Assembly: GCF_001017655.1 (NCBI RefSeq)
Contig: NZ_CP010904.1
Span: forward strand, 2,070,001-2,102,000
DNA: 32,000 nt
Reading direction: 5' to 3'
From: Kiritimatiella glycovorans
GTDB lineage: Bacteria; Verrucomicrobiota; Kiritimatiellia; Kiritimatiellales; Kiritimatiellaceae
The stretch's first letter is position 1, and every line of letters starts with the position of its first letter. The translations under genes were made by a program, and so were the position numbers. Shown piece by piece: positions 10,652-25,012 of this stretch. The notes below the pieces were generated by a model, which saw only the letters and a program-made list of their open reading frames with translations, ran no database searches and was not told the origin of the DNA.

Positions 10652-10720
10652 ACATAGAAGTCTTTTCTGTGACTCTTGTGCCTCTTTGTGGCTATCCAAT
10701 CCTGTCTTGAGGAGATCTTG

Positions 10721-11551
10721 ATGGCGGAGAATGAGCTTTCAGAACAACCGCGCGTGGCCCTGATCGTCTCCGCACGGAACGAAGAGGCGGATATCGGCGA
10801 CTGCCTGCGGAGCCTGCTCGCGCAGGATTACGTGAACAAGCAAGTCATCCTGGTCGACAACGCGTCGACCGACCGCACGGCGGAGATCGCGCGCGGGCTT
10901 GGGGTACGCGTGGAGGACCGGGGGCCTGAGCGCAGCGCGCAGCGCAATCACGGCGCCGCGGTGTCGGACGCCGGATTCGTCTGTTTCCTCGACGCTGACA
11001 TGATCTGCCCGGAAACGATGGTTCGGGAATGCCTGGCACAGATGGAGGATGCGGCGGTCGGCGCGGTGGTCATTCCCGAGGAATCGTTCGGCGAGGGATT
11101 CTGGTCGCAGTGCAAGGTACTCGAGCGGAGCTGTTACCCGCCCGGCGCCTATGTGGAAGCCGCGCGCTTCTACCGGCGCGACGTCTTCGATGCGCTGGGA
11201 GGATTCGACGAAGGACTCACGGGGCTGGAAGATCTCGATCTGCACCAGCGTTGCGCCGCACAGTATGCGATCGGGTACAGCGCAACGCCGATCCGTCATC
11301 ATGAAGGCCGCATCCGTTTCCTTGAGCAGATGGGCAAGAAGTACCGCTATGGCCGCCTTTCGCCGGCTTATGCCCGCAAGCATCCCGAGGCCTTCCGCCG
11401 GCAGGGCAACCCGTTTCGCGGCTACTTCTGGCACGAGCGGAAACGGCTTGCGCGCACTCCGTTTCTGACGACTGCCATGCTCTTCATGAAGTGTTGTGAA
11501 TTAGTCGCGGGGGGCATCGGGGTGCTGATGGGTCATCTTCGGGGGCGATAA
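10721..11551 (+). CDS. GT2 family glycosyltransferase
   Basis: VALIVSARNEEADIGDCLRSLLAQDY...ILVDNASTDRTAEIA...FLDADMICP...GLEDLDL. The ATG at 10721 is preceded by GGAG. The track ORF begins at an upstream TTG (10676). Confidence 0.8.
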   Translation: MAENELSEQPRVALIVSARNEEADIGDCLRSLLAQDYVNKQVILVDNASTDRTAEIARGLGVRVEDRGPERSAQRNHGAAVSDAGFVCFLDADMICPETMVRECLAQMEDAAVGAVVIPEESFGEGFWSQCKVLERSCYPPGAYVEAARFYRRDVFDALGGFDEGLTGLEDLDLHQRCAAQYAIGYSATPIRHHEGRIRFLEQMGKKYRYGRLSPAYARKHPEAFRRQGNPFRGYFWHERKRLARTPFLTTAMLFMKCCELVAGGIGVLMGHLRGR

Positions 11552-11563: not shown

Positions 11564-12745
11564 TCAATCACGGATCAGCGATCGCGCCAGATCGAGGGTC
11601 TCTCTCCCGGTGATCTCCCAGGAAAACCCCGACGCGTAATCCAAAGCCTCGGCCGCCTTTTGTTCCAGCGCCCCGGGATTGTCCAAAAGCTCTGCCGCGC
11701 ACCGGGCCAGGGCCTCGGGATCATCGACCGGAACCGTTTCCATCCCCTTTTCGAAGACCGCGTATACGGGGAGGTCGTAGGCCACGACCGGCAGGCCGCA
11801 CTTCATGGCCTCGAGATTCACTTGGCCGAAGCTTTCAAACCGGCTGGGCATCAGGAAAAGCCGGGCACTCTGGAGTACGCGCCATTTCTCATCGCCGTCC
11901 AGAAACCCCTTCCAGTCGATGTGCGCGTCCGCCTTTTCGCGTTTGATCTGCTGCTTGAACCGGCGTTCCAGGGTGCGGTCTCCCGAACCGATAATCACGG
12001 CTCGAAAACCGGGGCGCTGTCGTCCGATCCTCGCGCACACGTTCACCAGATCCTCCAGTCCCTTCTGGGCGTGGAAGCGTCCGCACCAGGCCGCGTCGTA
12101 CTTCTTATTCACATTGAACTCGGGTACATCCGCCCCGCTGTAGCGCGAGACCACATGTATCCGCTGTGCCGGGAACCACTGCCGGAGCTGTCGCTCGTAG
12201 AGGGGATTGTTGGTAAGAAGGGTGGCCCGCTTCGGGATGCGGCTGCGATATCGCCATTGTTCGAGCCTGTAGCGAATCAGCCTCGGGTCCGGCAGGTGGA
12301 CAGACCCCGTGTACTGCCCGTTGTATCCCCGCCACAGGTCGGGGGCGAGCATATGAACCCAGGCGATCAGCGCCGCCTCCGGCCATCGGTCGGCCAGACG
12401 AAAAAACGGCGTGCGATTGGGAAAAAATTCGTTATGGCAGAGCAGTACCGTATCGGGTTTCCGTTCGAGGCGCTCGATCAGCCGAAGGGCGTGGCGGACC
12501 CGACGCATGTACGCCTGCATGATATCGACGGCGCCCTCGGCTCCGCCACAGGAAGGCACGGGGTGCAGTCTGCAATGCGGATGACAATCCAGACCGAGGG
12601 AGGCATAATTGGGCACGGCGCTGCCGGGCAGCAGGACCTCGTTATCGACCCCCTGTCCCGCCAGATAGCGCACGGTCTCCAGCGTGCATCGATCGCCGCC
12701 GGACATGCCTGAGGTATAGGCCAGATCAAAGTGGATCAACCTCAT
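11564..12745 (-). CDS. GT4 (Glycos_transf_1) glycosyltransferase
   Basis: 393 aa. C-terminal GT-B motif: GRFHAQKGLEDLV...VIIGSGD...LFLMPSRFESFGQVNLEAMKCGLPVVAYD. Last gene of the minus-strand operon. Confidence 0.85.
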   Translation of the reverse strand: MRLIHFDLAYTSGMSGGDRCTLETVRYLAGQGVDNEVLLPGSAVPNYASLGLDCHPHCRLHPVPSCGGAEGAVDIMQAYMRRVRHALRLIERLERKPDTVLLCHNEFFPNRTPFFRLADRWPEAALIAWVHMLAPDLWRGYNGQYTGSVHLPDPRLIRYRLEQWRYRSRIPKRATLLTNNPLYERQLRQWFPAQRIHVVSRYSGADVPEFNVNKKYDAAWCGRFHAQKGLEDLVNVCARIGRQRPGFRAVIIGSGDRTLERRFKQQIKREKADAHIDWKGFLDGDEKWRVLQSARLFLMPSRFESFGQVNLEAMKCGLPVVAYDLPVYAVFEKGMETVPVDDPEALARCAAELLDNPGALEQKAAEALDYASGFSWEITGRETLDLARSLIRD

Positions 12746-12800
12746 ACATGACCCCCTTGGACCTCAGCACGTATCATCATCGCTGAACGGCCTTGAGGCA

Positions 12801-13544
12801 TCAGGGTTTCGCCCCTGCCCGGCCCAGCAGAATGCCGAATGTTCGCGCCCCCTTGAATTCCGCCGGACCCCGCCCCTGGTTCCACCAGCCGCGTACGCTG
12901 AATCCCGCCGACTCGCAGAGATCCTTCAGTGCCGGCGGGGAAAACGCGCGGATATGGCCGGCCGGAACGAACGGCGCCACCTTCTTCTTCAGAAAACCCG
13001 GACGAAGACCGTACGTGATCGATTCGTCGCCGACCTCGGGCCCGAGGGGCTGGCCTCCGCACAGCATCATGATCCGGTTCAGCCAGGAGGTCAGATTGGG
13101 GGTGCTGATCACGACGAGCGCTTCGTCCGCGGCGATTCGATAAAGCTCGCGCACCAGGTGTTCGGTATGAAAAACGTGCTCGATGACGTGATTGCAGAAA
13201 ACGAGGTCAAAGCTCCGATCGGGTGCCGGAACGGGGTCTTTATTCAAATCACATACGTGGAAGGTGAAGGGTTTTCCCCGGTACGCGAAATCCGCGTCGA
13301 CGGGGACCACATCCGTCCCGCAGACCGTCTCGACCGCCAGCTCTCTGCGTTCCAATTCCGCAACCAGGTCACGCAGGAAAACCCCGCGACCGCAGCCGGC
13401 ATCCATGATCCGGATCGGGCTGTCCCCCCGCACGCGGAGCCAGTTCCGCATGGCGCGGCCGCGGAAGAGGGCATCCAGCCTGTAGGTGCCCTTCGCATAC
13501 TCCGATTCGTCGCAGAACTTTTGTCTGTAGAAATCTGCATCCAT
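12801..13544 (-). CDS. Class I SAM-dependent methyltransferase
   Basis: 247 aa. Motif I is IRIMDAGCGRGVFLRDL; post-I/II is FDLVFCNHVIEHV. It starts 3 nt after the upstream gene's stop. Confidence 0.8.
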   Translation of the reverse strand: MDADFYRQKFCDESEYAKGTYRLDALFRGRAMRNWLRVRGDSPIRIMDAGCGRGVFLRDLVAELERRELAVETVCGTDVVPVDADFAYRGKPFTFHVCDLNKDPVPAPDRSFDLVFCNHVIEHVFHTEHLVRELYRIAADEALVVISTPNLTSWLNRIMMLCGGQPLGPEVGDESITYGLRPGFLKKKVAPFVPAGHIRAFSPPALKDLCESAGFSVRGWWNQGRGPAEFKGARTFGILLGRAGAKP

Positions 13545-13547
13545 GAA

Positions 13548-16091
13548 TCACCCGGAGCGATTTTTCCGATTCCGAGAATCCAGCCACCCGCCGGCGCCCC
13601 CCAGCAGGATGGCCGCCGCGAGGCTGACGAACACGGCTCCCGAAGCCAGGCCTCTGAACGCCGGGCGCGGGGCGAACCGGAATTCCACCTCATGCCGGCC
13701 CTCGGGGAGCAGAACGCCGCGCATCAGGTAGTTGGCGCGGACAGCCCCTGCTCTCACCCCGTCAATATGCACCCGCCAGTCGGGGCTGTATCGCGCATTA
13801 TGCAGCAACAGTGAGGGCCGGTCTGCGTCCACCCTTACCCGGGCGTATCCTCTCCGGGATTCGATCACCCTGCCCGCCCGCGGTTCCGCGGTGCCGTTTA
13901 CGGCACCGGCCGAGGTCAGCGGCGTTTCCGTCAGCACCGTCCGGGCGGGATGCCGGGCCTCATCGGCAAGGCGGCTCAGCACCTCCTCGGGTCCCGGCTG
14001 CACCCTTACGTTTTCAAATACCGCAAAGCGCGGCAGCGCGCCCTGCACCCGGTATACGTAATGACCGCGGCCTCCGAGATCTTCACCCTCCGCCACCTTT
14101 TCCAGCGCCGGATTTTCATTCAGCAGCGGTTCCAGACGCACCGGTTGCCGGGAGAGGCCGTAGAGGTATCCGTCCGTCACCACGTACTTTACATTGCACA
14201 ACTGCCAGAACCGGATATTGCGCTCGAGCAGTTCGCGGAACATCTCACGGCCCCCTTTTTGCGGAGCGCCAGGGAGGACCGCGCGGAAAAAGGAGCGATA
14301 CTCGGCAGCCACACGTGACTGCGGGGTATTCTCCATCGTTTCAATCCCGTAATAAGGGAAATGATAGGTAACGTAGCGGCCTCGATAGGGCGTCAGGGGA
14401 AGCGGAATGGCCTGACCGCCGTGAAACACCTTCAGCGAAGCCGCGACGCGGAACGGCGCCTGTTCTTCCTTCTGCGTATTCAAAAAGCGCAGCACCGTAC
14501 CCTGCGCATAGAAGTCGTCGGGCTTGAACAGTGCCCGCCGCAGGTAAAACCCGTCCACGGCAAACAGCTCGATCACCAGCACCACTCCGATCAGGGCGAC
14601 CCCCGCGGACCGAGCCCATTTCCTATCGCGAAAGCGGATCGTCATCCAGACCGCCCCCAGCACCAGGACCGCCCACACGACCATGCGTAACAGCGACGCG
14701 GTTCGGGCCTTCGCCGCGGCCGCCCCCGCCTCCGCGGACCCTAGCTGCGCGCCGAACCCCTGCGCGAGGTCGGGCTGGAAGGCATAGGTGCCGAGCAGCC
14801 CTACGAAACCCGCGACCGCAATTGCGACGAGACCATTGCGCAGAAGAGCGAGAAACCGCGTACGGTCCCGGCGAAAGGCCTCGCTAAAGTACTGAACACC
14901 GAACCCCGCCAGGAGCGACAGCGAAAAGGTCGCCACACTCATGAATTTGACCGGGGCGCGAAAGCGGTCCATGAGGGGCAGCTGAAACCAGAGCTGAAAC
15001 AGCGGGCGACCCGGCCAGAAGCGTCCGCACGCGAGCAGCAGTGCAAGCAGGGACAGCACGGCGAAGAAGCGCACCCTCGAATCCCGCCTCACGCCTGTGA
15101 GGATCGCCACGGCCGCCCAGAAGCAGACCGTGAATCCCGCGGCGTCGCTGTTGTGCGAGACCGGCTTGGTTCCGTGATAGGGGCGCGCGGGATCGCCGCT
15201 GAGTTCCCCGTGGTAGCCGGGGACGAACAGATCAATCCACTCCGCCGGATGGTGGGACCAGCTCGTCGAGAACTGCCACTTCGCCTCCTCCGTCCGAGTT
15301 CCGGCGGTCGTGACGCCGCCGGCCATATTCTTTCCGCCCGCCTGACGCTGCAGCTCGAAAGAGAACACCGAAAGCATCACACCGGCGGCCAGTCCCGCAC
15401 GCAGCCAGAAACCCGCCCCGAAAGCCGCCCGCAACCGCGACGGGAAGTTTATTCCGTCGGGGCAGTCGCTCCACGCCCGGAAGAGCAGGTAGGCCGCCGC
15501 CGCGAAGGAGAAATAGAGACCCCGCTGCGGGTCTTCGTTCATCAGCATCCCCCAGGCACAGCCGCCGGCCAGCGCCGAGGCCGCGCGGTCCAGTACCCCC
15601 CGCCCCCGCTCCGTCCAGCGTGTGATGAAGTAGAACAGCGCGGCAATGAAGGCGGGGGCGCTCAGCACCGTGAGGTGAACCGGGTAGATCAGCGTGACGA
15701 AATGCGGCGTGAACCCGAAGGCCGCGGCCCCGATGACCGCGGGGCCGCGTTCGAGCCGGTATTCGCGGAGCAGCAGATACGTGAAGAGCATGGCCGTCGC
15801 CCAGGAGGCGATGCACAGCCCGTACAGCATCCCCCCCGGATCGAGCAGCCGGGACGCGAGGGTCCACGTCTGGACGCCGAACACCCCCGATCCGCCGAGC
15901 CAGTAGGGCGTCCACCAGCCCTCGAACCCGTCATCGATCCATCCGTCGCGTACGCTCCGGATGGAGAAATTTCCGTCGACCCCGAGTACGGGGCGGAATT
16001 CCGGAACCAGGGCGGGGAGAAAGAAGACCGACGCGAGCAAGAGAAAAAGCAACGACACCAGCAGGGTTTCACGTGACAGGTTTCGCATCAT
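13548..16091 (-). CDS. YfhO-like GT-C polytopic membrane glycosyltransferase
   Basis: 847 aa. ~500 aa polytopic N-terminal part, then a ~300-aa soluble region ending in YSPDWRVHIDGVRAGAVRANYLMRGVLLPEGRHEVEFRFAPRP, followed by a terminal TM helix (ASGAVFVSLAAAILLGG). This C-terminal pattern and overall size match the YfhO family architecture. Confidence 0.65.
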   Translation of the reverse strand: MMRNLSRETLLVSLLFLLLASVFFLPALVPEFRPVLGVDGNFSIRSVRDGWIDDGFEGWWTPYWLGGSGVFGVQTWTLASRLLDPGGMLYGLCIASWATAMLFTYLLLREYRLERGPAVIGAAAFGFTPHFVTLIYPVHLTVLSAPAFIAALFYFITRWTERGRGVLDRAASALAGGCAWGMLMNEDPQRGLYFSFAAAAYLLFRAWSDCPDGINFPSRLRAAFGAGFWLRAGLAAGVMLSVFSFELQRQAGGKNMAGGVTTAGTRTEEAKWQFSTSWSHHPAEWIDLFVPGYHGELSGDPARPYHGTKPVSHNSDAAGFTVCFWAAVAILTGVRRDSRVRFFAVLSLLALLLACGRFWPGRPLFQLWFQLPLMDRFRAPVKFMSVATFSLSLLAGFGVQYFSEAFRRDRTRFLALLRNGLVAIAVAGFVGLLGTYAFQPDLAQGFGAQLGSAEAGAAAAKARTASLLRMVVWAVLVLGAVWMTIRFRDRKWARSAGVALIGVVLVIELFAVDGFYLRRALFKPDDFYAQGTVLRFLNTQKEEQAPFRVAASLKVFHGGQAIPLPLTPYRGRYVTYHFPYYGIETMENTPQSRVAAEYRSFFRAVLPGAPQKGGREMFRELLERNIRFWQLCNVKYVVTDGYLYGLSRQPVRLEPLLNENPALEKVAEGEDLGGRGHYVYRVQGALPRFAVFENVRVQPGPEEVLSRLADEARHPARTVLTETPLTSAGAVNGTAEPRAGRVIESRRGYARVRVDADRPSLLLHNARYSPDWRVHIDGVRAGAVRANYLMRGVLLPEGRHEVEFRFAPRPAFRGLASGAVFVSLAAAILLGGAGGWLDSRNRKNRSG

Positions 16092-17182
16092 GGCTCCTTT
16101 CTACACACCTTCTGCAGCAGCGACAACCATTTGTCGGCCGAGCGGTCCCAGGAGAATTCCGCCGCCCACGCCAGGGAAGATTCGGACCAAGCCGCGCGGC
16201 GGTCCGGATCATCCAACAGCCCCCGTATCTTATCCGCCAGCACGTCCGCCGCCCCGTAGGGAAACACGTCCCCGTTCACCCCGGGCCGGATGGAATCGCG
16301 GATGCCGGGGACGTCCGACCCGAGCACCGGGGTTCCGCAGGCATTCGCCTCGAGGTTCGTGATACTCCATCCCTCCATCATACTGGGGTTGACCGCGATC
16401 CACGCCCGCTGAAGAAACCGGCGTTTATCCTCCTCGCTCACCCGGCCCTCGAACCGGACGCGGTCGCTGATCCCGTACTCGCGGCAGATCCCCCGCAGGC
16501 GGGGTTCGTCATCGCCGTGACCGATCAGTCTGAAGAGCACCTCAGGGGCATGCAGTAGGCGGACCGCGTCGAGCAGCACGTCCACGGACTTATAGCGTTT
16601 GAGCCGTCCGAGGTAGACGATCTCCGGCCGCTGCGCCTTATCTCCGGGCGTCAGGTCGCCGGAAAAGGCGTTATAGATCACCTCTACCGCCGTCTGCGCG
16701 CCGAACAACCCGCGTATCATTTCAGCGGAACTCGGCGACACCGTAACGATCGGGCGGCCGCGATATACCTTGGGCATGACACGGCTTTCGAGAAATCTTC
16801 CCAGCAGGGCAAGCGGGGGCGTCAGTTCACGCCGCCAGACCTCGGTGTGGACGTGGTGAACGAGCAGGACTACGGGGCATGAGACGTACAGGGGGGAGAA
16901 GAATGGGATGCCGTTTTCCACATCGATGACCACCTCGGGGCGCGGACGCAGCCGCCGGAGGGCGGCCTGCGCTTTCATGTAGATGGTGTATTTGCCCCCG
17001 ACGCGGCGGAAGCTGATCCCGTCGTGCACCTCCTCCGCCGGCGCGCCCCGGACCCGCGCGGCCAGCCAGTCGACGCTATGCCCCTGCGCCGCCCAGCGTT
17101 TCGCCTGTTCGTGGAGATACACCTCCGACCCCCCGGCCTGGGGATGCCGGAAACACCGCCAGTTGAGGACGGCGATCTTCAC
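16088..17182 (-). CDS. GT4 (Glycos_transf_1) glycosyltransferase
   Basis: VKIAVLNWRCFRHPQAGGSEVYLHE...; C-terminal GRLKRYKSVDVLL...LIGHGDDE...NPSMMEGWSITNLEANACGTPVLGSD. Start chosen at GTG 17182: GAAGGAAG lies 7 nt upstream and it makes a GTGA overlap with the flippase stop. The track ORF extends to 17260. Confidence 0.85.
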   Translation of the reverse strand: MKIAVLNWRCFRHPQAGGSEVYLHEQAKRWAAQGHSVDWLAARVRGAPAEEVHDGISFRRVGGKYTIYMKAQAALRRLRPRPEVVIDVENGIPFFSPLYVSCPVVLLVHHVHTEVWRRELTPPLALLGRFLESRVMPKVYRGRPIVTVSPSSAEMIRGLFGAQTAVEVIYNAFSGDLTPGDKAQRPEIVYLGRLKRYKSVDVLLDAVRLLHAPEVLFRLIGHGDDEPRLRGICREYGISDRVRFEGRVSEEDKRRFLQRAWIAVNPSMMEGWSITNLEANACGTPVLGSDVPGIRDSIRPGVNGDVFPYGAADVLADKIRGLLDDPDRRAAWSESSLAWAAEFSWDRSADKWLSLLQKVCRKEP

Positions 17183-18447
17183 GATCGTGCTTCCTTCTGC
17201 AGTATGCGCTTTCCGCGTCCGCCGAACATCGAGATCATAAGGAAGGCGATCGACAGCCACCCCCCTGCCGCCACACAGGCGATCATCTGACGAGGAGTCT
17301 CATGGAAAGCGAAAAGGGCCATCAGATAACCCGTCACGAGCGGAAGCAGGCCGAGCGTGCGGCCGGTCAGATGACGCGCCCAGAGGTACTTGGACACGAT
17401 ACCGACCAAGCTGATGGGAAGCGCAGCCCAGACGTAGAGGCGGGCGCAGTCGAGATAGGCGCCGCCGTCGATGCCGTACATCAGGCGCATGGGAACGGCG
17501 GGGACAAGCGCGATCAGCACGGCGGCCGCGAGTGAACTCAGGAGCGCGAACAGAAAAGGCGCAAAGAAGATGGCCCGCCGCGCAGAGGTCACCGCACGGG
17601 GGAACATGGCCAGCGCCACGGGCTGGGCGAGGAAGAGCACGGTTCGTGAAAGGGTGGCCGCCTTGCCGTACACCGCCAGCGCCTCCCCCTCCAGAAACCG
17701 CTTCGACATCATGATATCGCCGTGCATCAGGAGAAAGACGGCGCCCTGCCCCAGCAGTACCGGCCAGAGGTATCGGTAGATCGGGCCTGTGTCGTAATCG
17801 GGTATGGCGGTTGTTTCCCTGACCACGCGACGGAAGGGAATATTACCGATGGCGAGACTCAGGAAGGTCGCGAGAAGGACGCCGGTCATAACCCCGTCGA
17901 CGCTCCCTCCCCACCAGACGATCAGCGCGCAGAGCAGCAGTCTGAAAAAACCGCTGCTGAAATTGGAGGCGGCCAGCCAGCCGAAATTCCGGGAACCCTG
18001 GAGGGCGCCGCCGATGATCGGCCGGTAGAGCATCAGCACTGCGATAGTTCCGAGCAGGATGATCGACCAGATGCTCGGCGCCTCGAAAAGCCGTCGCAAC
18101 CAGGGTGAGAACAGGATCCAGGCCGCGAGCCCTCCGCACGCCCAGAAGCTGACCCGCCGCATGGCGCGCTTGAAAATGGTAACCCATACCTGAACCGCGT
18201 TCTGGTGCGCGTGCTCGGCGATGTAGCGCGCGATCGTAATCTGCATCGCGGCCGCGGGCAGCCCCAGCACACTGAGCAGGCCGAGCAACGCGACGACGGC
18301 TGCGTAGTCCACCCCCGGCATCATTCGGCCCAGCACCACGTGCACGAGCAGATAGAAAAAACCCGTCACGGCTCCGGTACCGATCAGCAGCCCGCTGTCC
18401 CATGCAAACCGATACCGGTCGCGCAGATTCTTCACAAACCCGATCAT
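17179..18447 (-). CDS. PST/MOP-family polysaccharide flippase (Wzx-like), copy 1
   Basis: 422 aa, about 12 predicted TM helices. The N-terminal pattern VHVVLGRMMPGVDYAAVVALLGLLSVLGLPAAAMQITIARYIAE is typical of polysaccharide-biosynthesis (PST) flippases. ATGA overlap with the upstream sulfotransferase gene. Confidence 0.75.
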   Translation of the reverse strand: MIGFVKNLRDRYRFAWDSGLLIGTGAVTGFFYLLVHVVLGRMMPGVDYAAVVALLGLLSVLGLPAAAMQITIARYIAEHAHQNAVQVWVTIFKRAMRRVSFWACGGLAAWILFSPWLRRLFEAPSIWSIILLGTIAVLMLYRPIIGGALQGSRNFGWLAASNFSSGFFRLLLCALIVWWGGSVDGVMTGVLLATFLSLAIGNIPFRRVVRETTAIPDYDTGPIYRYLWPVLLGQGAVFLLMHGDIMMSKRFLEGEALAVYGKAATLSRTVLFLAQPVALAMFPRAVTSARRAIFFAPFLFALLSSLAAAVLIALVPAVPMRLMYGIDGGAYLDCARLYVWAALPISLVGIVSKYLWARHLTGRTLGLLPLVTGYLMALFAFHETPRQMIACVAAGGWLSIAFLMISMFGGRGKRILQKEARS

Positions 18448-19373
18448 TCCGTGGCCTTCCGCTGATCCGCTTCGAGCCAGTGCGATAAGTCGCGCCCCGT
18501 CAAATGCTCCAGCACCCCGACGTCCTCCCGATACACGCGGCAGAGCCGCCGACGCATCGCCTCCGACATACGCACGGGGCGAAGATTACGGCTCCGCAAC
18601 CGCTCTATACACCCGGAGACGGTGTCCTCCGGCAAACCCGCCCGGATTATGAGATCTTTCAGCTTCAGTTTCCATGGCGACGGCTTGAAAAAAACTTTCT
18701 GGATCCATCGATTTACGGGAACCCCGGAACGGTTCAGTGCCGCGACATCGGGAGGGCGGAAAGCGGAATCGAGACCGAGCCATTCGTAGACGCCGGCTAT
18801 CCAAGGGTCGAAACGTTGTATCATGTCCTCGAACAGTTCCACCCTCACCCGGGAAAAATGCTCCAGATAGGTTCGCACCGGATCCGCGTAATACCCCATC
18901 GCGATGTAATGCCGGTTCCAGGGAATCGCGTCGGCGCCTCCGCTGAGTTCCTGCTCGACCGCATCCTCGAACGTGCGCAGTTCGTTCATATCGCGCACAT
19001 AATGCATGTAATTGGAATACGCCCGGTCCACCGGATTCCTGAGCAGAATCAGGATCCGCACGTCGCCCACCAGGTCACGGATCGTCGGCGCGGACTCGCG
19101 GTGCGTGTAAAGATAACTGCTCGCCACCTCGCCGGACACGGGCGCACGTTCACCGGAGACCCTTCCGAACAGCGCCCTGTATTCCGCTTCGGTATAGATC
19201 CGCCCCCGGAATCCGGGCAGCCTCCGCACGGCATCCCGGTTGAACAGATAGGTGTCCTTGGTGGGCACGTAACATCCGGGATGGGCACGAAGATAGCGAT
19301 AGAGCGAGGTCGTTCCGCACTTCTCTCCGCCCGGCACGATAAAAGCAGGCGATGAAGGGCTCCCGGCGTTCAT
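18444..19373 (-). CDS. PAPS-dependent carbohydrate sulfotransferase (Sulfotransfer_1-like, KxGTT type)
   Basis: 309 aa from ATG 19373: MNAGSPSSPAFIVPGGEKCGTTSLYRYL (5'-PSB loop)...ILILLRNPVDRAYSNYMH (3'-PB motif). The track ORF 18444..20021 carries a spurious 216-codon N-terminal extension that overlaps the GT2 gene in another frame. Confidence 0.85.
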   Translation of the reverse strand: MNAGSPSSPAFIVPGGEKCGTTSLYRYLRAHPGCYVPTKDTYLFNRDAVRRLPGFRGRIYTEAEYRALFGRVSGERAPVSGEVASSYLYTHRESAPTIRDLVGDVRILILLRNPVDRAYSNYMHYVRDMNELRTFEDAVEQELSGGADAIPWNRHYIAMGYYADPVRTYLEHFSRVRVELFEDMIQRFDPWIAGVYEWLGLDSAFRPPDVAALNRSGVPVNRWIQKVFFKPSPWKLKLKDLIIRAGLPEDTVSGCIERLRSRNLRPVRMSEAMRRRLCRVYREDVGVLEHLTGRDLSHWLEADQRKATE

Positions 19374-20137
19374 GACCCCCACCTCATGACCCGGCTCACC
19401 GCGCGGCCCAGCACCGGGACGAGAAAACGAAAGGGCGAATACACCAGCCTCAACCGCACCAGCGCCACGGCCATCTCCGTACTCGCCTTGCCCATCCGCA
19501 GCTTCGACCCCGCGGCGTCGCTCCAGGTGGTGGGGATCTCGCGGATCGTCCCGCCGGCGCGCCGTACCTGGTAGAGCAGATCGACGTCGAAGGCCCAGTT
19601 GGTCGTGCCGAGCTTCGGAAGCACCCGCTGCAGTGTCGCCCCGCGAAACAGTTTGGCCCCGCACTGGGTATCGTGGAGCGCGAGTCCGAACAGGAGCCGT
19701 ACCAGCCCATTGAACACGCGCGACGCGGCGCGGCGCGAAAGGGGCTGTTTCGGCTCGACGCGCGAAGCCGGAAGCCAGCGGGAAGCGATGATCGCGTCCG
19801 CGTCGCCGATCCGGTCGACCAGATCCTGAAAGGCCTCCGGCGGCGTCGCGCCGTCGGCGTCCACAAACCCCACGAGTTCCCCGCGCGCCTCGCGGAATCC
19901 CATCATCACCGCCCCGCCCTTCCCTACCCGGCCGGGTTCGATCAGAATTTTTATCTGCGGATACTGCTTTCCCGCTTCGCGCGCCACCTCCGCCGTGCGG
20001 TCGGTCGAGCCGTTGACGCACACGATCAGTTCGACATCATCGCCGTACCGCGGCGAGAAGTACGAGGCATACCGCTCCAGCGCCGGCCCGAGCCTGCACT
20101 CCTCATTGAACGCCGGTATGATGATGGAGAGTTTCAT
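19370..20137 (-). CDS. GT2 glycosyltransferase, dolichyl/polyprenyl-phosphate hexosyltransferase-like (DPM1/DPG-synthase type)
   Basis: 255 aa. KLSIIIPAFNEECRL...LIVCVNGSTDRTAEVA...GKGGAVMMG...FVDADGATPP...HDTQCGAKLFR...WAFDVDLL, the signature series of Dpm1/Alg5-like GT2 enzymes. ATGA overlap with the sulfotransferase start. Confidence 0.85.
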   Translation of the reverse strand: MKLSIIIPAFNEECRLGPALERYASYFSPRYGDDVELIVCVNGSTDRTAEVAREAGKQYPQIKILIEPGRVGKGGAVMMGFREARGELVGFVDADGATPPEAFQDLVDRIGDADAIIASRWLPASRVEPKQPLSRRAASRVFNGLVRLLFGLALHDTQCGAKLFRGATLQRVLPKLGTTNWAFDVDLLYQVRRAGGTIREIPTTWSDAAGSKLRMGKASTEMAVALVRLRLVYSPFRFLVPVLGRAVSRVMRWGS

Positions 20138-20155
20138 CCTCGATCCATATACGAT

Positions 20156-21427
20156 CTATGCTTCCCGCCGCGTCAGCAGCATGACCAGTCCCGCCAGCGC
20201 ACCGTAGGTCGACGCGGCCAGCGCCATGGCCACCTGGCCGGTCGTCTCGTGGAAGAGTGCGACCCCGGCAATAAATACCGCGGCGGCGCCTCCCACCCAC
20301 AGAATGCACGCGAAACGATGCTGGGCGAGTTCATAATTGAGTAAAACGAAAATCAATCCCAGCGGCGCCATGGCCACGCAGACACCCCGGAGGAGCTGCA
20401 CGAGCCCCGGAGCGGGGTCGATCACCCCGAACAGGATGCGGAGCGGTACGGCGGGGAACAGCGTCACCGCCGCCACGACGCCCGCGATCAGCAATCCGGT
20501 CAGCGCCAGGGCCTTGAACAGGGTCTTGCGGTCGGCCGCCGCACTCGCGCCGGTCGAGATCACCTTCGGGAACAGCGCGAACCCGACCGGCTGGCATAGA
20601 AAGACGATGATCCGCGCCACGGCCGAGGCGCGGGCGTAGTCGCCGAAATCGATCTCCGCCGGGAAGAACAGTTTGACCAGCACGTTATCGCCGTTCATCA
20701 GCAGCGCGTAGCCGAAAAGCGCCGCGAGCGAGAGCAGGAAATAACGGTTCGTCGCGACCGGCTTGCCGGGGTCGCCGGCGGGCGCGGGCAGCCGGCGCGC
20801 CAGTACCGCGCCGCCGATCGCGATGCACGCGACCATCCCCAGCAGGTGCGCCGTCAACCCGCCGGCCGCCGTCGCAAAACCCAGCCCCACCGCGATCCCC
20901 CCGAACAGGAGGCGGAGGAAGGTCCAGGCGTTCACCGTCACGCTCATCCAGAAGAAATGCTGCAGACCCTGCAGCACCCCGCTGAGCACCGGACGAAACG
21001 CCGCGACGAAAAGCACCGCCGCCAGCAGCGCCACCGGCAGGGCCGAATCGAGATACAGCGCCCGCCGGATCGGCCCGCCCGCCAGGAGCAGCAACAGGAG
21101 GAGGGGGCCGGCCACGAGTAAAACCCGTTTCAGCCAGCTCTGCAGCAGGCGACGTATCTCGTGCTCGCGGCCCTCCTTCTCCAGCCGGCCGCAGAAGTGG
21201 GCCAGCGTGCTCTGCAGCGCCATCAGCGGGACGGAAAAGACGAGAAACGCGCTGAGCATCGCCGCCAGGACCCCGTACTCCGCCCGCGAACAGGTCCGGC
21301 CCATGAGCAGGTGAAAGAGGAGATTCGCCACACTGCCCGCGTGCCCGACCCCCATCAGGATCAGGCTGTGATAGAGCAGGTGATCGCCGTCCCACCGGTC
21401 CCGCACGCGGCGGAGACGGCTTCTCAT
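20156..21427 (-). CDS. PST/MOP-family polysaccharide flippase (Wzx-like), copy 2
   Basis: About 12 TM helices. N-terminal LLMGRTCSRAEYGVLAAMLSAFLVFSVPLMALQSTLAHF is the same PST pattern as copy 1. Start chosen at ATG 21427 (GGAAGG 11 nt upstream). An alternative ATG at 21454 would overlap the ATPase stop (TGATG). The track ORF extends to 21520. Confidence 0.7.
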   Translation of the reverse strand: MRSRLRRVRDRWDGDHLLYHSLILMGVGHAGSVANLLFHLLMGRTCSRAEYGVLAAMLSAFLVFSVPLMALQSTLAHFCGRLEKEGREHEIRRLLQSWLKRVLLVAGPLLLLLLLAGGPIRRALYLDSALPVALLAAVLFVAAFRPVLSGVLQGLQHFFWMSVTVNAWTFLRLLFGGIAVGLGFATAAGGLTAHLLGMVACIAIGGAVLARRLPAPAGDPGKPVATNRYFLLSLAALFGYALLMNGDNVLVKLFFPAEIDFGDYARASAVARIIVFLCQPVGFALFPKVISTGASAAADRKTLFKALALTGLLIAGVVAAVTLFPAVPLRILFGVIDPAPGLVQLLRGVCVAMAPLGLIFVLLNYELAQHRFACILWVGGAAAVFIAGVALFHETTGQVAMALAASTYGALAGLVMLLTRREA

Positions 21428-21453
21428 AGTTCCACGCGCCTTCCGTTCGTTCA

Positions 21454-22683
21454 TCAGAGTTCCCAATAGGGTATCGCCTGGATGTTTTCGCCGAGCTGCA
21501 TCCGCCTCCGACAACGGCACACGACAAACCCCCTGCGGGCCTGCGGTCCGGCGGTCGCGAGAAAGGTCCGCAGATGGCGCACATCCTTACCCGAAGGCCT
21601 GTCCGTCCACTTCACTTCGACCGGCATCTGTTCGCCGTCCAGTTCCACGATATAATCAATTTCCGTTCCACTCCGCGTCCGCAGGTGAAAAAGCCTGCCC
21701 CGGCCGAGATAGTGAAGCCTCTTGATCAACTCCTGCCCCACCCACTGCTCGAAAATCGCCCCCGCGTCATGGCGAATCGTCGACTCGGAAAAATCGAGGC
21801 GGGCGGCGGCATTGCGTACCCCGGTGTCCATGAAACACATCCGCGGGGTCGAACACAGACCCTTGCGTCGGCTGCTCGAAAAAGCCGGTATCCGGAACGC
21901 GATGAACATGTCCTCGAGAAGTTCGTAATAGGACCGGATCGTCGGGAGGGCCACACCGATCTGACGGGAGAGGCTCGACATGTTGACGATCGAACCCGAT
22001 TCTGAAGCGGACAGCTCGAGGAACCGGACAAAGGCGCCCCAATCCCTCACCAGCATCTCGCGCCGAATCTCCTCCTCCAGGTATATCTGCGTGTAACTCC
22101 GGAGAAGTTCGCCCTTCATCTCGCGGGCCGCCTCGGCAATCCCCGGCAGATCCCCGAAAAGGAGCCGGTCTTCCAGCGATACGGGATCGAAACGAGGATT
22201 CGATGAATCCCGTTCCGTTTCAAACGGCACGGTCTCCCCGCCCGACCCCTCGGGAAACGGACGTTCCAGCGTGGTGAGCGGCACGAGCCGCCGATAGATC
22301 GCGCGCCCCGGGAGAAGATTGGCGCCGGTTTTGCGAAGTCTGCGGGCCGAACTTCCGCAGAGCACAAACTTCCACCGCGAAGCGTCCTCATCATACAGAT
22401 GCTGCACCGCGTTGAATATCTCCGGTACACTCTGGGCCTCATCGACGACCACCGTCGTCCGCTTCCCGCCGCCCAGGGCCCTGCATTCCTGCTCGAATTT
22501 TTCGGGAGATGCCAGATACGCCGATCGCTCCGCAGGGCTTGAAAGATCGATCCAGAGATCGGCATCGGAAAACGCCGAGCGCAAAAGCGTGGATTTGCCT
22601 ACCTGTCTGGCGCCGAAGAGAATGAGCACGTAAGGCTCCTCCCTCAGCCGGTTAATCCCCGCTTCCAGAATCCGCCATTTCAT
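21454..22683 (-). CDS. COG1373-type AAA+ ATPase (AAA_14) with C-terminal DUF4143 / PD-(D/E)xK-like domain
   Basis: 409 aa. Walker A is LFGARQVGKST; Walker B is VVVDEAQ. C-terminal GTEIDYIVELDGEQMPVEVKW fits a D...ExK nuclease-fold motif. The gene uses far more A/T-ending codons (AAA, GAA, ATT, GAT, CTT) than its neighbours. Confidence 0.85.
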   Translation of the reverse strand: MKWRILEAGINRLREEPYVLILFGARQVGKSTLLRSAFSDADLWIDLSSPAERSAYLASPEKFEQECRALGGGKRTTVVVDEAQSVPEIFNAVQHLYDEDASRWKFVLCGSSARRLRKTGANLLPGRAIYRRLVPLTTLERPFPEGSGGETVPFETERDSSNPRFDPVSLEDRLLFGDLPGIAEAAREMKGELLRSYTQIYLEEEIRREMLVRDWGAFVRFLELSASESGSIVNMSSLSRQIGVALPTIRSYYELLEDMFIAFRIPAFSSSRRKGLCSTPRMCFMDTGVRNAAARLDFSESTIRHDAGAIFEQWVGQELIKRLHYLGRGRLFHLRTRSGTEIDYIVELDGEQMPVEVKWTDRPSGKDVRHLRTFLATAGPQARRGFVVCRCRRRMQLGENIQAIPYWEL

Positions 22684-22708
22684 AACATCACCTTAATATT
22701 TACTGTAA

Positions 22709-22737
22709 AATCTAAGGTGACCTATTAAATATGTCAA
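22709..22737 (-). promoter_or_regulatory. Candidate sigma70-type promoter of the AAA+ gene
   Basis: The minus strand reads TTGACA (22737-22732), 17 nt spacer, TAGATT (22714-22709), then about 25 nt including AAGGTGA, then ATG 22683. The -35 hexamer overlaps the stop codon (22734-22736) of the upstream GT-C gene. Confidence 0.4.
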
Positions 22738-24353
22738 TATATTGATGTGTAGATTCTCAGAAGCGTATGCCCCTGCCCGAAATGCTCGATCTCGCGCACC
22801 GGACGGAAGCGTTCCCGCACCAGCTCATAGAATCGCTCCGTCTCCTCTGCGGGCAGCGGCTGTATTTCGGGACAGGCGATGGTCAGCCCGTACCCGCTGA
22901 ACGCGGCCATGGGGGCGTCGGCGGTGCGGAGCCGTTCGGTGAGCATGGCACGGTTGAGCAGGTGAAGCCGCTCCGCCCTTTCGCGTTCCATGTCGGGATA
23001 GTAACTGAACGGCCCCATTTCCATTTCACGCGGCACGCGGCGGTCGGCTTCGACGGCGAGATAGGCGTCCTGCGTGAGCAGGATCGAGCCGGCCGGGGTG
23101 CGTGCGCGGATGAACGCGCCCGCGTCGCGCAGTTTGACCAGGTCCGGCCGCTCCTTGAACTTCCACCAGATCCGGTCGCGTCCGCGCACGAACCACTGCT
23201 GATTGATCGGCGACGAACCCGCGCCCGCCAGCGAAGCGAGCACCACCAGCACGGCCAATCCCGGAAGGAGGCGGCGCGGGATGAGCGGCACCAGCGCGAC
23301 CACCAGCGCGACCGCGAGCACCGGGTAGATGATCGCCTGATAGTCGTCGTACGGAAACGGCGCGATCAGGTGCACCAGCGTCACCGCCGCCCCGCCCGCC
23401 CAGAGCACGCCCGGCGAACAGGCCGGAGCCGACGTCCCGCTTCGCTCCCGGTCGCGTCTGAACCGCAGCAGCATCGACGCCAGCGTCAGGACGGCCCACA
23501 GGTAATACGCCTGTACGAAACGGGAGACGAACCCCGCCTTCAGGACCAGGGCCTCCATCAGGCCCCCGGGTTCACGGCCCGAATGATAGCCCAGCATCCC
23601 GAACCGGAACTCTTCCGGTGCGATCAGGAGGAAAGGAAGCATCCACAGCGCGAGCACGAATGCCCCGCCGATCCCGAAGCAGACCCAGTTGAGTTGCCGT
23701 CCGAGGTACTGCCCCCGGCTGTTGAACCGCTCGCGGTTCGCTTCCGCCTCGCCGCTCCGGGAGATGAGCCAGACGCCGACGACCGGGAGCAGGATCCCTG
23801 CGGACAGGCGCGTACCGGCGGCGAGCGCGAAAAAGAACCCCGACCAGAAACACGCCATACCGCCGAACCGGAGGCTGCGCCGGAACGTGAGGGCGAGGAA
23901 TCCCGCGGCGATCCATGTCGCGGCCAGCCCGTAGGTTTTGACCACGGTCGTGAAATAGCTCTGGTAGCAATTGAGCAGAATCAGCGCCAGCGTCGCGCAG
24001 GCCGCGACCGCCGCATAGTCCTTTCCGCCCGCCGTGCGTTCGCGCACCGAGCGGAACGCCGTCCACGCCGCCAGCAGTGCCGCCGCCGCGCCGAAACACG
24101 CCGTGATCAGCCGTCCGCCCGCCACGCCCCACGCGCGGACGAGCGGGGCGAACACGGCGTACACAAACGGCAGGACCGGTCCCTGCGTAAACGCGAAATC
24201 CGCGTACGGGATCCGCCCCTCCGCCACCGAACGCGCCGCAAGGAGATACCAGCCCTCGTCCTGGTTCAGATCGCCCAGCCACAGATTCGCCCCGCAGAGC
24301 AGAACCGCCGCGCCCGCGGTCGACAGGATCAGAATGAACATCAGGGTACGCAT
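22734..24353 (-). CDS. GT-C fold membrane glycosyltransferase (GT39/PMT_2-like)
   Basis: 539 aa. Polytopic N-terminal ~390 aa with first-loop acidic motif WLGDLNQDEGWYLLAARSVAEGRIPYADFAFTQGP, then a ~150-aa soluble C-terminal domain. First gene of the minus-strand operon. Confidence 0.75.
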   Translation of the reverse strand: MRTLMFILILSTAGAAVLLCGANLWLGDLNQDEGWYLLAARSVAEGRIPYADFAFTQGPVLPFVYAVFAPLVRAWGVAGGRLITACFGAAAALLAAWTAFRSVRERTAGGKDYAAVAACATLALILLNCYQSYFTTVVKTYGLAATWIAAGFLALTFRRSLRFGGMACFWSGFFFALAAGTRLSAGILLPVVGVWLISRSGEAEANRERFNSRGQYLGRQLNWVCFGIGGAFVLALWMLPFLLIAPEEFRFGMLGYHSGREPGGLMEALVLKAGFVSRFVQAYYLWAVLTLASMLLRFRRDRERSGTSAPACSPGVLWAGGAAVTLVHLIAPFPYDDYQAIIYPVLAVALVVALVPLIPRRLLPGLAVLVVLASLAGAGSSPINQQWFVRGRDRIWWKFKERPDLVKLRDAGAFIRARTPAGSILLTQDAYLAVEADRRVPREMEMGPFSYYPDMERERAERLHLLNRAMLTERLRTADAPMAAFSGYGLTIACPEIQPLPAEETERFYELVRERFRPVREIEHFGQGHTLLRIYTSIY

Positions 24354-24466
24354 CGCCGGGCTCGACGATGACAGAAGCCCCCGCGCGCGACAAGGCGTTT
24401 AAATTCGGTTATTCGTGGATTTTTATGGAAAGGTTCCCGGGAAAGGTGGGATGCGGGAGATCGCAG

Positions 24467-24513
24467 GGGGAGAGAGCATGGGATTCATCATGAAGGACAT
24501 GAAGAGCATGAAG
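24467..24513 (-). repeat. CTTCATG-triplet element, copy A (minus orientation)
   Basis: The minus strand reads cttcatgctcttcatgtccttcatgatgaatcccatgctctctcccc. It matches copy B at 42 of 45 aligned positions plus a 2-nt indel. Its core is three tandem 9-mers (CTTCATGNN). It ends 113 nt upstream of, and is co-oriented with, the GT-C start at 24353. Confidence 0.8.
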
Positions 24514-24544
24514 ATTGGTTGAGGTGGGGGGGGTGAACATAATT

Positions 24545-24637
24545 CGTACTCTTACTCGTACTCGTACGCGTACTCGGACCGCCGAAGGCGTGATTCCATC
24601 CCCCGATTCAAGGAATTCGAGTACGAGTAGGAGTACG
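24545..24637. repeat. Hexamer array (GTACTC)x5 and inverted (GAGTAC)x3, forming a 20-bp inverted repeat around a 53-nt spacer
   Basis: cgtactcttactcgtactcg (24545-24564) pairs with cgagtacgagtaggagtacg (24618-24637), complementary at 19 of 20 positions. The hexamer units gtactc/ttactc/gtactc/gtacgc/gtactc span 24546-24575. Confidence 0.8.
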
Positions 24638-24651
24638 ATGTGACGCAGCAC

Positions 24652-24783
24652 TTCTCATTATGGCCGCATTCCGACCGCGGACGGCGTGGCAGCCGTCCCT
24701 CCCGAGTCGATATCCGACGCATTTTCGGGCACTGGGAGGGTCGGGTGCCACCCCGACCGAAAAGGGTGAAGCCATAATGAGAA
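24652..24783. repeat. 132-nt palindromic structured element with perfect 13-bp terminal inverted repeats
   Basis: TTCTCATTATGGC (24652-24664) pairs with GCCATAATGAGAA (24771-24783). Internal hairpins are GGACGGC/GCCGTCC (24679-24685 with 24692-24698) and GGTCGGG/CCCGACC (24739-24745 with 24752-24758). An alternative pairing is CCCTCCC/GGGAGGG (24697-24703 with 24734-24740). Confidence 0.7.
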
Positions 24784-24818
24784 TCGCTGGATGTGACGCG
24801 AGCGGACTTGCCGCCGCT

Positions 24819-25004
24819 CACCATGGTTTGGTTACATACGGTCGTCTCTTCGGCCTCATCCTTGAAAACCAGTTCGGGCTCCACGCCGGAATTGTCGAAG
24901 CAATGCAGGGTGTCGGCGAGGGGTCGGTACAGTGCCAGCAGGTTCGGCAACGTCCGGGCATATCGACGACGCACATCCGGTTCCGGCACATGATGCCCGC
25001 CGCC
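24819..25004 (-). pseudogene. C-terminal relic of a zeta-toxin-like / COG4185 P-loop kinase gene (5' two-thirds missing)
   Basis: The minus frame reads (stop)GGGHHVPEPDVRRRYARTLPNLLALYRPLADTLHCFDNSGVEPELVFKDE. The GGHxVPExxxRRRY...N...LAD....DNS pattern is the C-terminal signature of COG4185/zeta-like ATPases. No Walker A region precedes it: an in-frame stop lies at 25005-25007 and the neighbouring lipoprotein gene ends at 25013. Confidence 0.55.
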
Positions 25005-25012
25005 TCACCCCA

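Follow-up and report, generated by a model that had tools for sequence, protein, structure and literature searches.

A putative composite envelope-glycan locus in Kiritimatiella glycovorans that joins GT-C, GT2 and MOP-family genes to predicted tailoring enzymes

How might a bacterium assemble a sulfated and methylated glycoconjugate from a gene cluster that lacks the genes defining the classical surface-polysaccharide pathways? This question is raised by a run of ten minus-strand genes in Kiritimatiella glycovorans, at positions 11564-24353 of the window, by which we mean the whole stretch of 32,000 nucleotides analyzed here (contig NZ_CP010904.1, positions 2,070,001 to 2,102,000). In anoxic sediments, guts and hypersaline mats, Kiritimatiellales are abundant and degrade sulfated glycans, their relatives secrete sulfated polymers, and bacterial carbohydrate sulfotransferases are barely characterized. 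K. glycovorans itself forms exopolymers, and its genome paper does not discuss this locus (PMC5148204). To judge from its genes and their conservation, the run is a real, conserved and elaborate surface-glycan locus made of known families. On balance, we lean toward reading it as a composite envelope-glycan locus that uses polyprenyl-phosphate-linked sugars and GT-C transferases, and not a Wzy, ABC transporter or synthase route.

Gene order and the GT-C, GT2 and MOP genes

The ten open reading frames (ORFs) between 24353 and 11564 that an earlier, sequence-only reading had described as tightly packed are all present, with the junctions it listed. Genes overlap by ATGA at 19370-19373, 18444-18447 and 16088-16091 and by GTGA at 17179-17182, where the flippase gene PST2 meets the glycosyltransferase gene GT4a; a 3-nt gap lies at 13545-13547, and larger gaps measure 55 nt (12746-12800), 18 nt (20138-20155) and 50 nt (22684-22733). 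Several start codons are backed by alignment: GT4a orthologues align from residue 1 of the short start at 17182, residues 2-301 of the sulfotransferase align with residues 2-303 of Protein Data Bank (PDB) entry 3rnl, and orthologues place the most likely start of PST1 at the ATG at 21427, leaving a 26-nt gap after the preceding AAA gene. Terminator-like matches within the operon occur at chance level (13 found versus 13.6 expected in shuffled sequence), and from the spacing of the genes we infer that all ten are co-transcribed. Parts of the arrangement recur in more than 20 independent loci, and it is not a product of chance. The family labels given earlier, namely two GT-C, two PST, one GT2 and two GT4 proteins, a sulfotransferase, a methyltransferase and an AAA protein, were likewise confirmed or supported by Pfam, paralogy and fold models.

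The first gene of the operon, GTC (22734-24353, minus strand), has no Pfam or NCBIfam match, and its AlphaFold2 model (pLDDT 80, pTM 0.85) adopts a GT-C fold. The best matches of this model in the PDB are the ArnT structures 5f15 and 5ezm (TM-score 0.55-0.58, same length), followed by AglB/PglB/STT3, ALG12, AftA and PMT, and UniRef names for its homologues are RgtA/B/C/D-like. More than 1500 homologues at about 50% identity are found in Kiritimatiellales, all cultured members included and Tichowtungia, Pontiella and strain S94 among them, and within the family the motif N30-Q-D32-E33-G-W-Y, following the first transmembrane helix, is invariant. Since this identity is as high as the 44-50% amino acid identity (AAI) that K. 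glycovorans and Pontiella show over their whole genomes, GTC appears to behave as a core gene, unlike the variable genes of exopolysaccharide (EPS) clusters.

The second member of what we consider the core is GT2dpm (19370-20137, minus strand; Pfam Glycos_transf_2, 6.8e-29), whose top NCBIfam models are ArnC, a haloarchaeal dolichyl-phosphate hexose transferase and AglJ, all scoring under their equivalog cutoffs. Among PDB chains it is closest to dolichyl-phosphate mannose synthase (DPMS, 5mlz, 3e-21), three ArnC entries (about 1e-17) and GtrB (1.5e-15). A profile built from 15 orthologues aligns over positions 1-206 of 226 only with DPMS, ArnC and GtrB, whereas other GT2 proteins align over the N-terminal 110 or so positions only, that is, over the nucleotide-binding half. 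These comparisons support GT2dpm as a putative polyprenyl-phosphate sugar synthase. The third member, PST1 (20156-21427, minus strand), has no Pfam match and about 11 hydrophobic segments; it is a full-length paralogue of PST2 (27% identity, E 8e-30) and hence is assigned to the MOP superfamily of flippases.

To place these genes in the order, loci were gathered by searching genomes with the YfhO-like family encoded in the run and metagenomes with the GT-C family, and the proteins of the window were compared with more than 100 loci by tblastn. Counts refer to the 46 loci with at least 4 kb of sequence downstream of GTC. A GT2dpm homologue lies directly downstream of GTC in 22 of them, mostly separated from it by 6-54 nt, and in 19 the GTC-GT2 pair is in turn followed by a PST1-type MOP protein. 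In two loci, Pontiella desulfatans (L024:11518-13515) and a metagenome contig (L031:12507-14555), the GT2 and MOP proteins form a single ORF; to our knowledge, no such fusion has been described. The core of the locus thus seems to be a triad conserved across the order, consisting of an ArnT-like GT-C, a Dpm1/ArnC-like GT2 and a MOP flippase, a gene set in which the GT2 and flippase are twice found fused.

What follows the triad differs by genus. Depending on the locus, one finds Rml genes, extra methyltransferases, a pyruvyl transferase together with a radical S-adenosylmethionine (SAM) enzyme, or NeuB accompanied by a CMP-transferase and a further sulfotransferase. Many of the more distant loci have housekeeping genes immediately after the triad, as seen in a Pfam census of 91 ORFs from 12 loci, which weakens the idea that variable tailoring genes always follow it. 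GtrA adjoins GTC in Pontiella-type loci. In four such loci (L024, L025, L106 and L004), a protein (about 1050-1150 aa) that combines TMEM260_N with tetratricopeptide repeat (TPR) domains and a GT4 protein adjoin the GtrA-GTC pair divergently; the TMEM260_N/TPR protein is a GT-C of the protein O-mannosyltransferase type.

Accessory genes, a candidate passenger and absent families

A second recurrent gene order reads MOP, GT4a (or GT9), optional methyltransferase, YfhO-like, and is found in L001, L002, L004, L020-L022 and L026. In L004, a Pontiella metagenome-assembled genome (MAG), both orders meet in one series, GtrA-GTC-GT2-PST2-GT4a-YfhO-sulfotransferase. PST2 (17179-18447, minus strand) is a Wzx-like MOP/PST flippase that passes the Polysacc_synt cutoff (30 bits, cutoff 28.2), and orthologues 40-49% identical to it lie upstream of GT4a in L004 and L026. 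GT4a itself (16088-17182, minus strand; Glycos_transf_1, 3.5e-37), a cytoplasmic GT-B enzyme of family GT4, is the conserved partner of the YfhO-like gene, with orthologues 51-56% identical in L001, L002, L004, L022 and L026; in L020 and L021 a Glyco_transf_9 (GT9) gene takes its place at the same position.

The YfhO-like protein (13548-16091, minus strand; 847 aa) has a GT-C fold in its model, followed by a C-terminal beta-rich domain and a final transmembrane helix. It is 100% identical to a K. glycovorans protein at NCBI, and the products of GTC and the sulfotransferase gene match in the same way. Its own YfhO match is weak and limited to the C-terminus, and its orthologues carry PF09586 and PF13231. 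The AlphaFold2 model is of moderate confidence (pLDDT 69), and its best PDB folds are ArnT, AftD, AftA, STT3 and PMT. Within the family D38 is nearly invariant, and orthologues are 35-40% identical in Kiritimatiellales and about 27% identical in Brevinematales, the closest outside the order. On a Brevinematales chromosome (L008:9914-14533) the gene is surrounded by housekeeping genes and immediately followed by an isoamylase-like GH13/CBM48 gene; given such neighbors, this occurrence is uninformative on function.

The remaining glycan genes of the run are less widely shared. Orthologues of the class-I, SAM-dependent methyltransferase (12801-13544, minus strand; Methyltransf_23, 1.2e-19) are 44-47% identical and lie between GT4a and the YfhO-like gene in L002, L022 and L026, so that this accessory is partly conserved. 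The second GT4, GT4b (11564-12745, minus strand; Glycos_transf_1, 8.7e-27), has weak positional counterparts only, at 26-29% identity, in L002 and L026. The sulfotransferase (18444-19373, minus strand) matches Sulfotransfer_3 (6e-11) and Sulfotransfer_1 (1.2e-9) with scores of 43.5 and 38.4 bits (cutoffs 27 and 22), and is a putative cytoplasmic carbohydrate enzyme of the type that uses 3'-phosphoadenosine 5'-phosphosulfate (PAPS), with both PAPS-binding loops present (GGEKCGTTS and RNPVDRAYS). Its best PDB match is 3rnl, a bacterial structural-genomics enzyme (2.5e-38), followed by 3-OST-3A1 (8.5e-12) and NDST1 (about 1e-6); its nearest characterized relatives are therefore heparan sulfate 3-O- and N-sulfotransferases. 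The family is widespread in bacteria (3519 matches), with the nearest relatives just 45-47% identical, and the gene, which has a G+C content at third codon positions (GC3) of 0.72, is syntenic only in L004, at 40% identity. L106 and a published cluster of Pontiella sulfatireligans F21 hold Sulfotransfer_3 genes unrelated to it.

No signal peptide or hydrophobic segment was found in the sulfotransferase or the methyltransferase; as SAM and PAPS are cytoplasmic, both enzymes are predicted to act on a cytoplasmic, probably lipid-linked intermediate that would later be flipped by a MOP protein. The sulfation and methylation genes are, together with GT4b, lineage-specific accessories added to a conserved core. 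Our comparison thus separates that core from the sulfation and methylation genes, and it also takes one gene out of the proposed pathway.

That gene, at 21454-22683 on the minus strand, had been counted as an AAA+ member of the glycan operon. It encodes an AAA_14 ATPase with a DUF4143 domain (Pfam 2e-21 and 1e-33), and its product matches the PADLOC family PDC-S01 over its full length (6e-72, 240.7 bits, residues 6-407); PDC-S01 is a candidate phage-defense family, and the defense role is a candidate assignment in PADLOC. The gene has a GC3 of 0.72 against 0.84-0.86 in its neighbors GTC, PST1 and GT2dpm, and no homologue or syntenic counterpart of it was found in any related locus compared. 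Upstream of it lies an AT-rich spacer (22684-22733; GC 0.26 against about 0.64 for the window), at which there is a sigma-70-like promoter match (TTGACA-17-TAGATT, 22737..22709). Given the PDC-S01 match, the lower GC3, the promoter-like spacer and the missing syntenic counterpart, it is likely an inserted passenger that splits the GTC/GT2/flippase triad and stands outside the glycan pathway.

Family searches agree with the earlier reading that the hallmarks of classical pathways are missing from the window. No phosphoglycosyltransferase (WbaP/Bac_transf or WecA/Glycos_transf_4) turned up among the real genes of the window, nor in seven annotated neighborhoods homologous to it. Wzy (Wzy_C), Wzz/Wzc and Wza (Poly_export) gave no match in the window, nor did Wzy, Wzz and Wza in those seven neighborhoods, and among 91 further ORFs downstream of GTC in 12 loci neither these three nor phosphoglycosyltransferases were among the families occurring at least twice. 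The window has no ABC exporter match (ABC_tran, ABC2_membrane) and no processive GT2 synthase, its four GT2 proteins measuring 255-326 aa with 0-2 hydrophobic segments. Neither GtrA (searched by PF04138 or by tblastn with Pontiella GtrA) nor an ArnE/F-type flippase occurs in the window, which has two MOP proteins instead. Also absent from the window are TMEM260-TPR homologues, hexosamine or amino-sugar genes (vioA/DegT, GlcNAc-specific enzymes) and Pfam matches to the STT3/AglB or PglL families, with AglB/PglB/STT3 appearing only as secondary fold matches, after ArnT, of the GTC model.

The locus was earlier taken to end at 11564, a bound that proved too narrow. In other Kiritimatiellales the YfhO-like gene is accompanied by homologues of the genes at 10676-11551, 8298-10562, 6171-8153 and 5129-6109, so that the functional locus probably reaches left to about 4301. 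Immediately beyond the operon, and convergent with it across a 12-nt spacer, lies a GT2 with a C-terminal transmembrane helix (10676-11551, plus strand; Glycos_transf_2, 2.3e-22), whose true start is probably the ATG at 10721. It is the most conserved gene of the neighborhood (69-74% identity in L001, L002, L020 and L021), and in these four loci its orthologues always adjoin the YfhO-like gene on the opposite strand. This identity is far above that of the other locus genes and above the AAI, and its best NCBIfam models are MftF-like and arsenosugar-type GT2s.

Next comes a DUF2961 (GH172) secreted protein or lipoprotein (8298-10562, minus strand; 2.1e-61) with a signal sequence ending in LSAGC. 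Its homologues adjoin YfhO-like or PMT_2 genes at L002:11680-13884, L003:3030-5249 and L040:10315-12483. GH172 enzymes are exo-alpha-D-arabinofuranosidases or alpha-D-fructofuranosidases (PMC10115798, PMC8605356), and the K. glycovorans protein is possibly a trimming or remodeling hydrolase. A third GT-C, of the PMT_2 family (6171-8153, plus strand; 28.5 bits, cutoff 26.1), has about 11 hydrophobic segments and homologues 25-27% identical in L002, L003 and L054. Divergent from it is a polyprenyl-phosphate GT2 of the GtrB/PgfS/ArnC type (5129-6109, minus strand; Glycos_transf_2, 6.4e-30), which matches PgfS (268 bits) and ArnC (167 bits) over its full length, both under their equivalog cutoffs, and has a 62% identical homologue in L003. 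A possible second sulfotransferase (4301-5116, minus strand) scores just 18.9 bits for Sulfotransfer_3 against a cutoff of 27. It has two motifs, MHRSGTSF and CFRHPAEVARS, that resemble PAPS-binding loops; as it showed no similarity to the enzyme at 18444-19373 or to any PDB chain, we keep it as possible only. A plus-strand ORF across this region (4331-6115, 594 aa, no Pfam match), considered as a conserved gene, was rejected as an antisense artifact of a high-GC genome, its translation being of low complexity and the real genes lying on the minus strand.

Possible products and mechanisms

Periplasmic glycosylation by three components is known from several systems, including GtrA/GtrB/GtrC in O-antigen glucosylation, ArnC/ArnEF/ArnT, CsbB/GtcA/YfhO in teichoic acid modification, and RgtE with RgtA-D. 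In all of these a GT2 charges polyprenyl phosphate, a flippase moves the lipid and a GT-C transfers the sugar outside, with no phosphoglycosyltransferase, Wzy, co-polymerase or exporter. The window resembles them in having a Dpm1/GtrB/ArnC-like GT2 near a GT-C transferase and a flippase, co-oriented and tightly spaced, in its lack of a phosphoglycosyltransferase, polymerase and exporter, in having YfhO and ArnT as closest family and fold, and in the acidic motif in the first external loop of the GT-C proteins (D32-E33 in GTC, D38 in the YfhO-like protein). It differs in that a MOP/Wzx-like protein with 12-14 transmembrane helices, which in two relatives forms a fusion with the GT2, stands in for GtrA or ArnEF as the flippase, and in that the window holds three GT-C and two polyprenyl-phosphate GT2 genes with an embedded sulfotransferase and methyltransferase. 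Because a Dpm1/ArnC-like GT2 itself charges the lipid carrier, the missing phosphoglycosyltransferase, Wzy and exporter are expected and not anomalous. The earlier statement that the locus fits no canonical pathway therefore holds as far as Wzy, ABC and synthase hallmarks are concerned, but the combination of GT2, flippase and GT-C follows a known three-component logic.

Building on the observed gene families, folds, gene order and conservation, we propose that the locus comprises two modules. In the first, GT2dpm would charge polyprenyl phosphate with a sugar at the cytoplasmic face, PST1 would flip the charged lipid, and GTC would transfer the sugar in the periplasm. The second would consist of PST2, GT4a and the YfhO-like GT-C, with the methyltransferase, sulfotransferase and GT4b as lineage-specific tailoring; here, a lipid-linked saccharide would be built, methylated and sulfated in the cytoplasm, flipped, and then handed to or decorated by GT-C enzymes outside. 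Genes next to the operon probably contribute to this glycoconjugate as well, namely those for the PMT_2 GT-C and the GtrB/PgfS-like GT2, for the GH172 lipoprotein and for the conserved GT2 at 10676-11551. Assembly and tailoring in the cytoplasm, flipping, and transfer or decoration outside by GT-C enzymes had also been suggested in the sequence-only reading, and we judge this scheme the best available. Within it, we infer the substrates, the order of steps, the convergence of both modules on one product and the acceptor, which could be a protein, a lipoglycan, or the core or lipid A of lipopolysaccharide (LPS). We favor a conserved envelope acceptor, given the housekeeping-like conservation of the triad and the closeness of the fold to ArnT, while the PMT_2 gene, the PgfS-like GT2 and the TMEM260-TPR neighbors in Pontiella keep protein glycosylation as an open candidate.

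Several points weigh against this composite scheme. GT2dpm scores far under every NCBIfam equivalog cutoff, so that its sugar, and even its lipid acceptor, are matters of prediction. The role given to PST1 is uncertain, because MOP proteins classically flip undecaprenyl-diphosphate (Und-PP)-oligosaccharides and Pontiella loci have GtrA besides a MOP protein. About half of the GTC loci have no related genes following, and the triad stands alone in many, so that the two modules may serve different products. The lipid used by GT4a and GT4b may require an initiating enzyme encoded elsewhere. Finally, a WecG/TagA-family glycosyltransferase, which in known systems acts on Und-PP-GlcNAc, is encoded at the left edge of the window, and genes for an Und-PP-type glycan may continue leftward from there.

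That edge gene is one of several observations that would suit a more classical product, a sulfated glycosaminoglycan-like EPS made through a Wzx/Wzy-type or other established route, for which initiation, polymerase, co-polymerase and exporter genes would lie elsewhere and the GT-C enzymes would only add side branches. K. glycovorans forms exopolymers (PMC5148204), Pontiella makes N-sulfated exopolymers and has a proposed cluster with the same kit of genes (PMC7356697), the characterized enzymes closest to the sulfotransferase act on heparan sulfate as 3-O- and N-sulfotransferases, and two Wzx-like MOP proteins are encoded. We nevertheless regard such an EPS as unlikely: the window shares with the Wzx/Wzy pathway its MOP/PST flippases, without the initiating phosphoglycosyltransferase, Wzy, Wzz/Wzc or Wza; phosphoglycosyltransferase, Wzy, Wzz and Wza are equally missing from the seven annotated neighborhoods, which belong to other genera; the conserved genes are those for GT-C, GT2 and MOP proteins and not for polymerization; and GTC is about 50% identical across the order, in line with the AAI and unlike variable EPS genes. 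A similarly low probability attaches to the view that two unrelated systems merely abut, a self-contained housekeeping triad for placing a single sugar on lipid A, LPS core or another conserved acceptor, and a separate variable glycan made by the remaining genes. The triad is often found alone beside housekeeping genes, the nearest solved fold of its GT-C is ArnT, of equal length, with RgtA/B/C/D-like UniRef names, and the genes downstream of it vary by genus (NeuB/CMP-transferase, Rml, pyruvyl transferase, radical SAM). In K. glycovorans, however, the sulfotransferase gene connects the two parts by way of 4-nt start/stop overlaps, the parts lie side by side in the same orientation in Kiritimatiella, Tichowtungia-like and Pontiella loci, and the YfhO-like GT-C needs a polyprenyl-phosphate-sugar donor that the triad GT2 could supply.

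The GT-C enzymes might instead be protein O-glycosyltransferases of the PMT, TMEM260 or TMTC kind, in which case the locus would place a sulfated, methylated glycan on secreted or envelope proteins. PgfS, the model on which the GT2 at 5129-6109 scores highest, belongs to a streptococcal protein-glycosylation system, a PMT_2-family GT-C is part of the locus, a TMEM260_N-TPR GT-C lies divergent from GtrA-GTC in Pontiella-type loci, and PMT, STT3, PglB and AglB are among the fold matches. Yet the window has no TMEM260/TPR homologue and no STT3 or PglL family match, both GT-C models match ArnT, a lipid A transferase, best, and the operon encodes no candidate target protein; we therefore consider this route quite improbable. 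The composite envelope-glycan scheme remains the one we prefer, and comparisons with other systems bear on how it might operate.

Among the closest published counterparts is a gene cluster of Pontiella sulfatireligans F21 that was proposed, from annotation, to make a sulfated glycosaminoglycan (van Vliet et al. 2020, PMC7356697, Fig. 5) in a genus whose strains make sulfated (N-sulfated) exopolymers (PMC7356697). We compared F21 by its published gene legend and established orthology against the Pontiella MAG L004, in which six genes are orthologous to those of the window at 35-61% identity, the sulfotransferase included. Both clusters come from the same class, Kiritimatiellae, and share yfhO, an undecaprenyl-phosphate mannosyltransferase GT2, tuaB (a MOP flippase), met, stf and GT2/GT4 genes. 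They differ in that F21 has gtrA, vioA (a transaminase) and gmd, none of which occurs in the window, in gene order, and in the AAA/DUF4143 insertion and two MOP paralogues of the window. The locus type had thus already been noticed in a sister genus, where it was neither characterized nor read in the present way.

A looser resemblance links the window to the assembly of lipomannan and lipoarabinomannan in mycobacteria and corynebacteria, which relies on the GT4 enzymes PimA and PimB', the GT2 Ppm1 and GT-C mannosyl- and arabinosyltransferases. Both combine cytoplasmic GT4s, a polyprenyl-phosphate-sugar GT2 and several GT-Cs and do without a phosphoglycosyltransferase, Wzy or exporter; our fold matches include AftA and AftD, and characterized relatives of the linked GH172 gene cleave D-arabinofuranosides. 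No genes for decaprenyl-phosphate-arabinose or a phosphatidylinositol anchor were seen, and with another phylum and another envelope the resemblance is architectural only. The GH172 gene could point to a remodeling step or to a furanoside as part of the glycan; since donor-synthesis genes were not found in the window, D-arabinofuranose or fructofuranose in the product is kept as speculation.

The haloarchaeal N-glycosylation pathways offer a further parallel. In Haloferax, AglD (a GT2), the Wzx-like AglR and the GT-C AglS act together on dolichol-phosphate mannose, and the methyltransferase AglP is part of the pathway (PMC3871713), while in Halobacterium a sulfated tetrasaccharide is assembled on dolichol monophosphate with a transient 3-O-methylglucose (PMC8674786). 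Like these pathways (AglJ/G/I/E/P and AglD/AglR/AglS of Hfx. volcanii, and that of Hbt. salinarum), the window combines a GT2 predicted to act on polyprenol monophosphate, a Wzx-like MOP protein of the kind implicated in flipping, a GT-C acting outside and a SAM methyltransferase; the lipid-linked glycan would be sulfated and methylated before transfer, and both organisms are halophiles. K. glycovorans, in contrast, is a bacterium with an outer membrane, its window has no AglB/STT3-family sequence match, and the similarity is at family level only; moreover, the archaeal glycan is an oligosaccharide on a monophosphate carrier, whereas its counterpart here is known from genes alone and could be a single sugar.

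It is tempting to imagine an archaeal-style route in a bacterium, in which an oligosaccharide would be begun by a Dpm1-like GT2 on polyprenol monophosphate (not diphosphate), extended by GT4/GT2 enzymes, methylated and sulfated while lipid-linked, flipped by a MOP protein and transferred en bloc to an envelope acceptor by the ArnT-like or YfhO-like GT-C. The triad would then start, flip and transfer the glycan, and the variable genes in the middle would lend it a serotype-like diversity. We regard this analogy as doubtful. If a MOP protein did flip a polyprenyl-monophosphate sugar, or if an oligosaccharide were sulfated on a monophosphate carrier, the locus would be a bacterial counterpart of a mechanism that is so far haloarchaeal; otherwise, it would be an ordinary, if elaborate, surface-glycan decoration cluster.

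The edges of the window

The WecG/TagA/CpsF-family (GT26) glycosyltransferase, whose minus-strand gene (5-1174) is truncated by the left end of the window, carries a C-terminal STAS (anti-sigma antagonist-like) domain. A plus-strand ORF at 20-1957, taken as a single DUF502 gene, proved partly wrong: the GT26 gene lies antisense to its 5' part, and the DUF502 match falls within its last third only. DUF502, MgtE and RecO genes separate the GT26 gene from the glycan locus.

Upstream of GTC lies a non-coding leader or promoter region of 659 nt (24354-25012, minus strand) with no credible ORF. It contains a hairpin at about 24535-24650 formed by inverted (CGAGTA)n hexamer arrays (6 matches versus 0.02 expected), with a stem of about 20 bp, a folding energy of -47.8 kcal/mol and z = -4.4. 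An Rfam scan of the window, this hairpin included, returned no family; the hairpin could end transcription of the upstream DUF6250 gene or serve the operon as a leader element.

The right flank is not glycan-related and encodes a DUF6250 lipoprotein, the methionyl-tRNA synthetase MetRS, a 593-aa protein and a ComM-like ATPase. The DUF6250 protein (25013-25786, minus strand) has a lipobox-like signal sequence (FFLSGC), and because its longest ORF shares 52 nt with the end of the MetRS gene (25735-27669, minus strand), its true start is probably further downstream. The 593-aa ORF (27687-29468, plus strand) has a coding-like GC3 of 0.86 and no Pfam or NCBIfam match.

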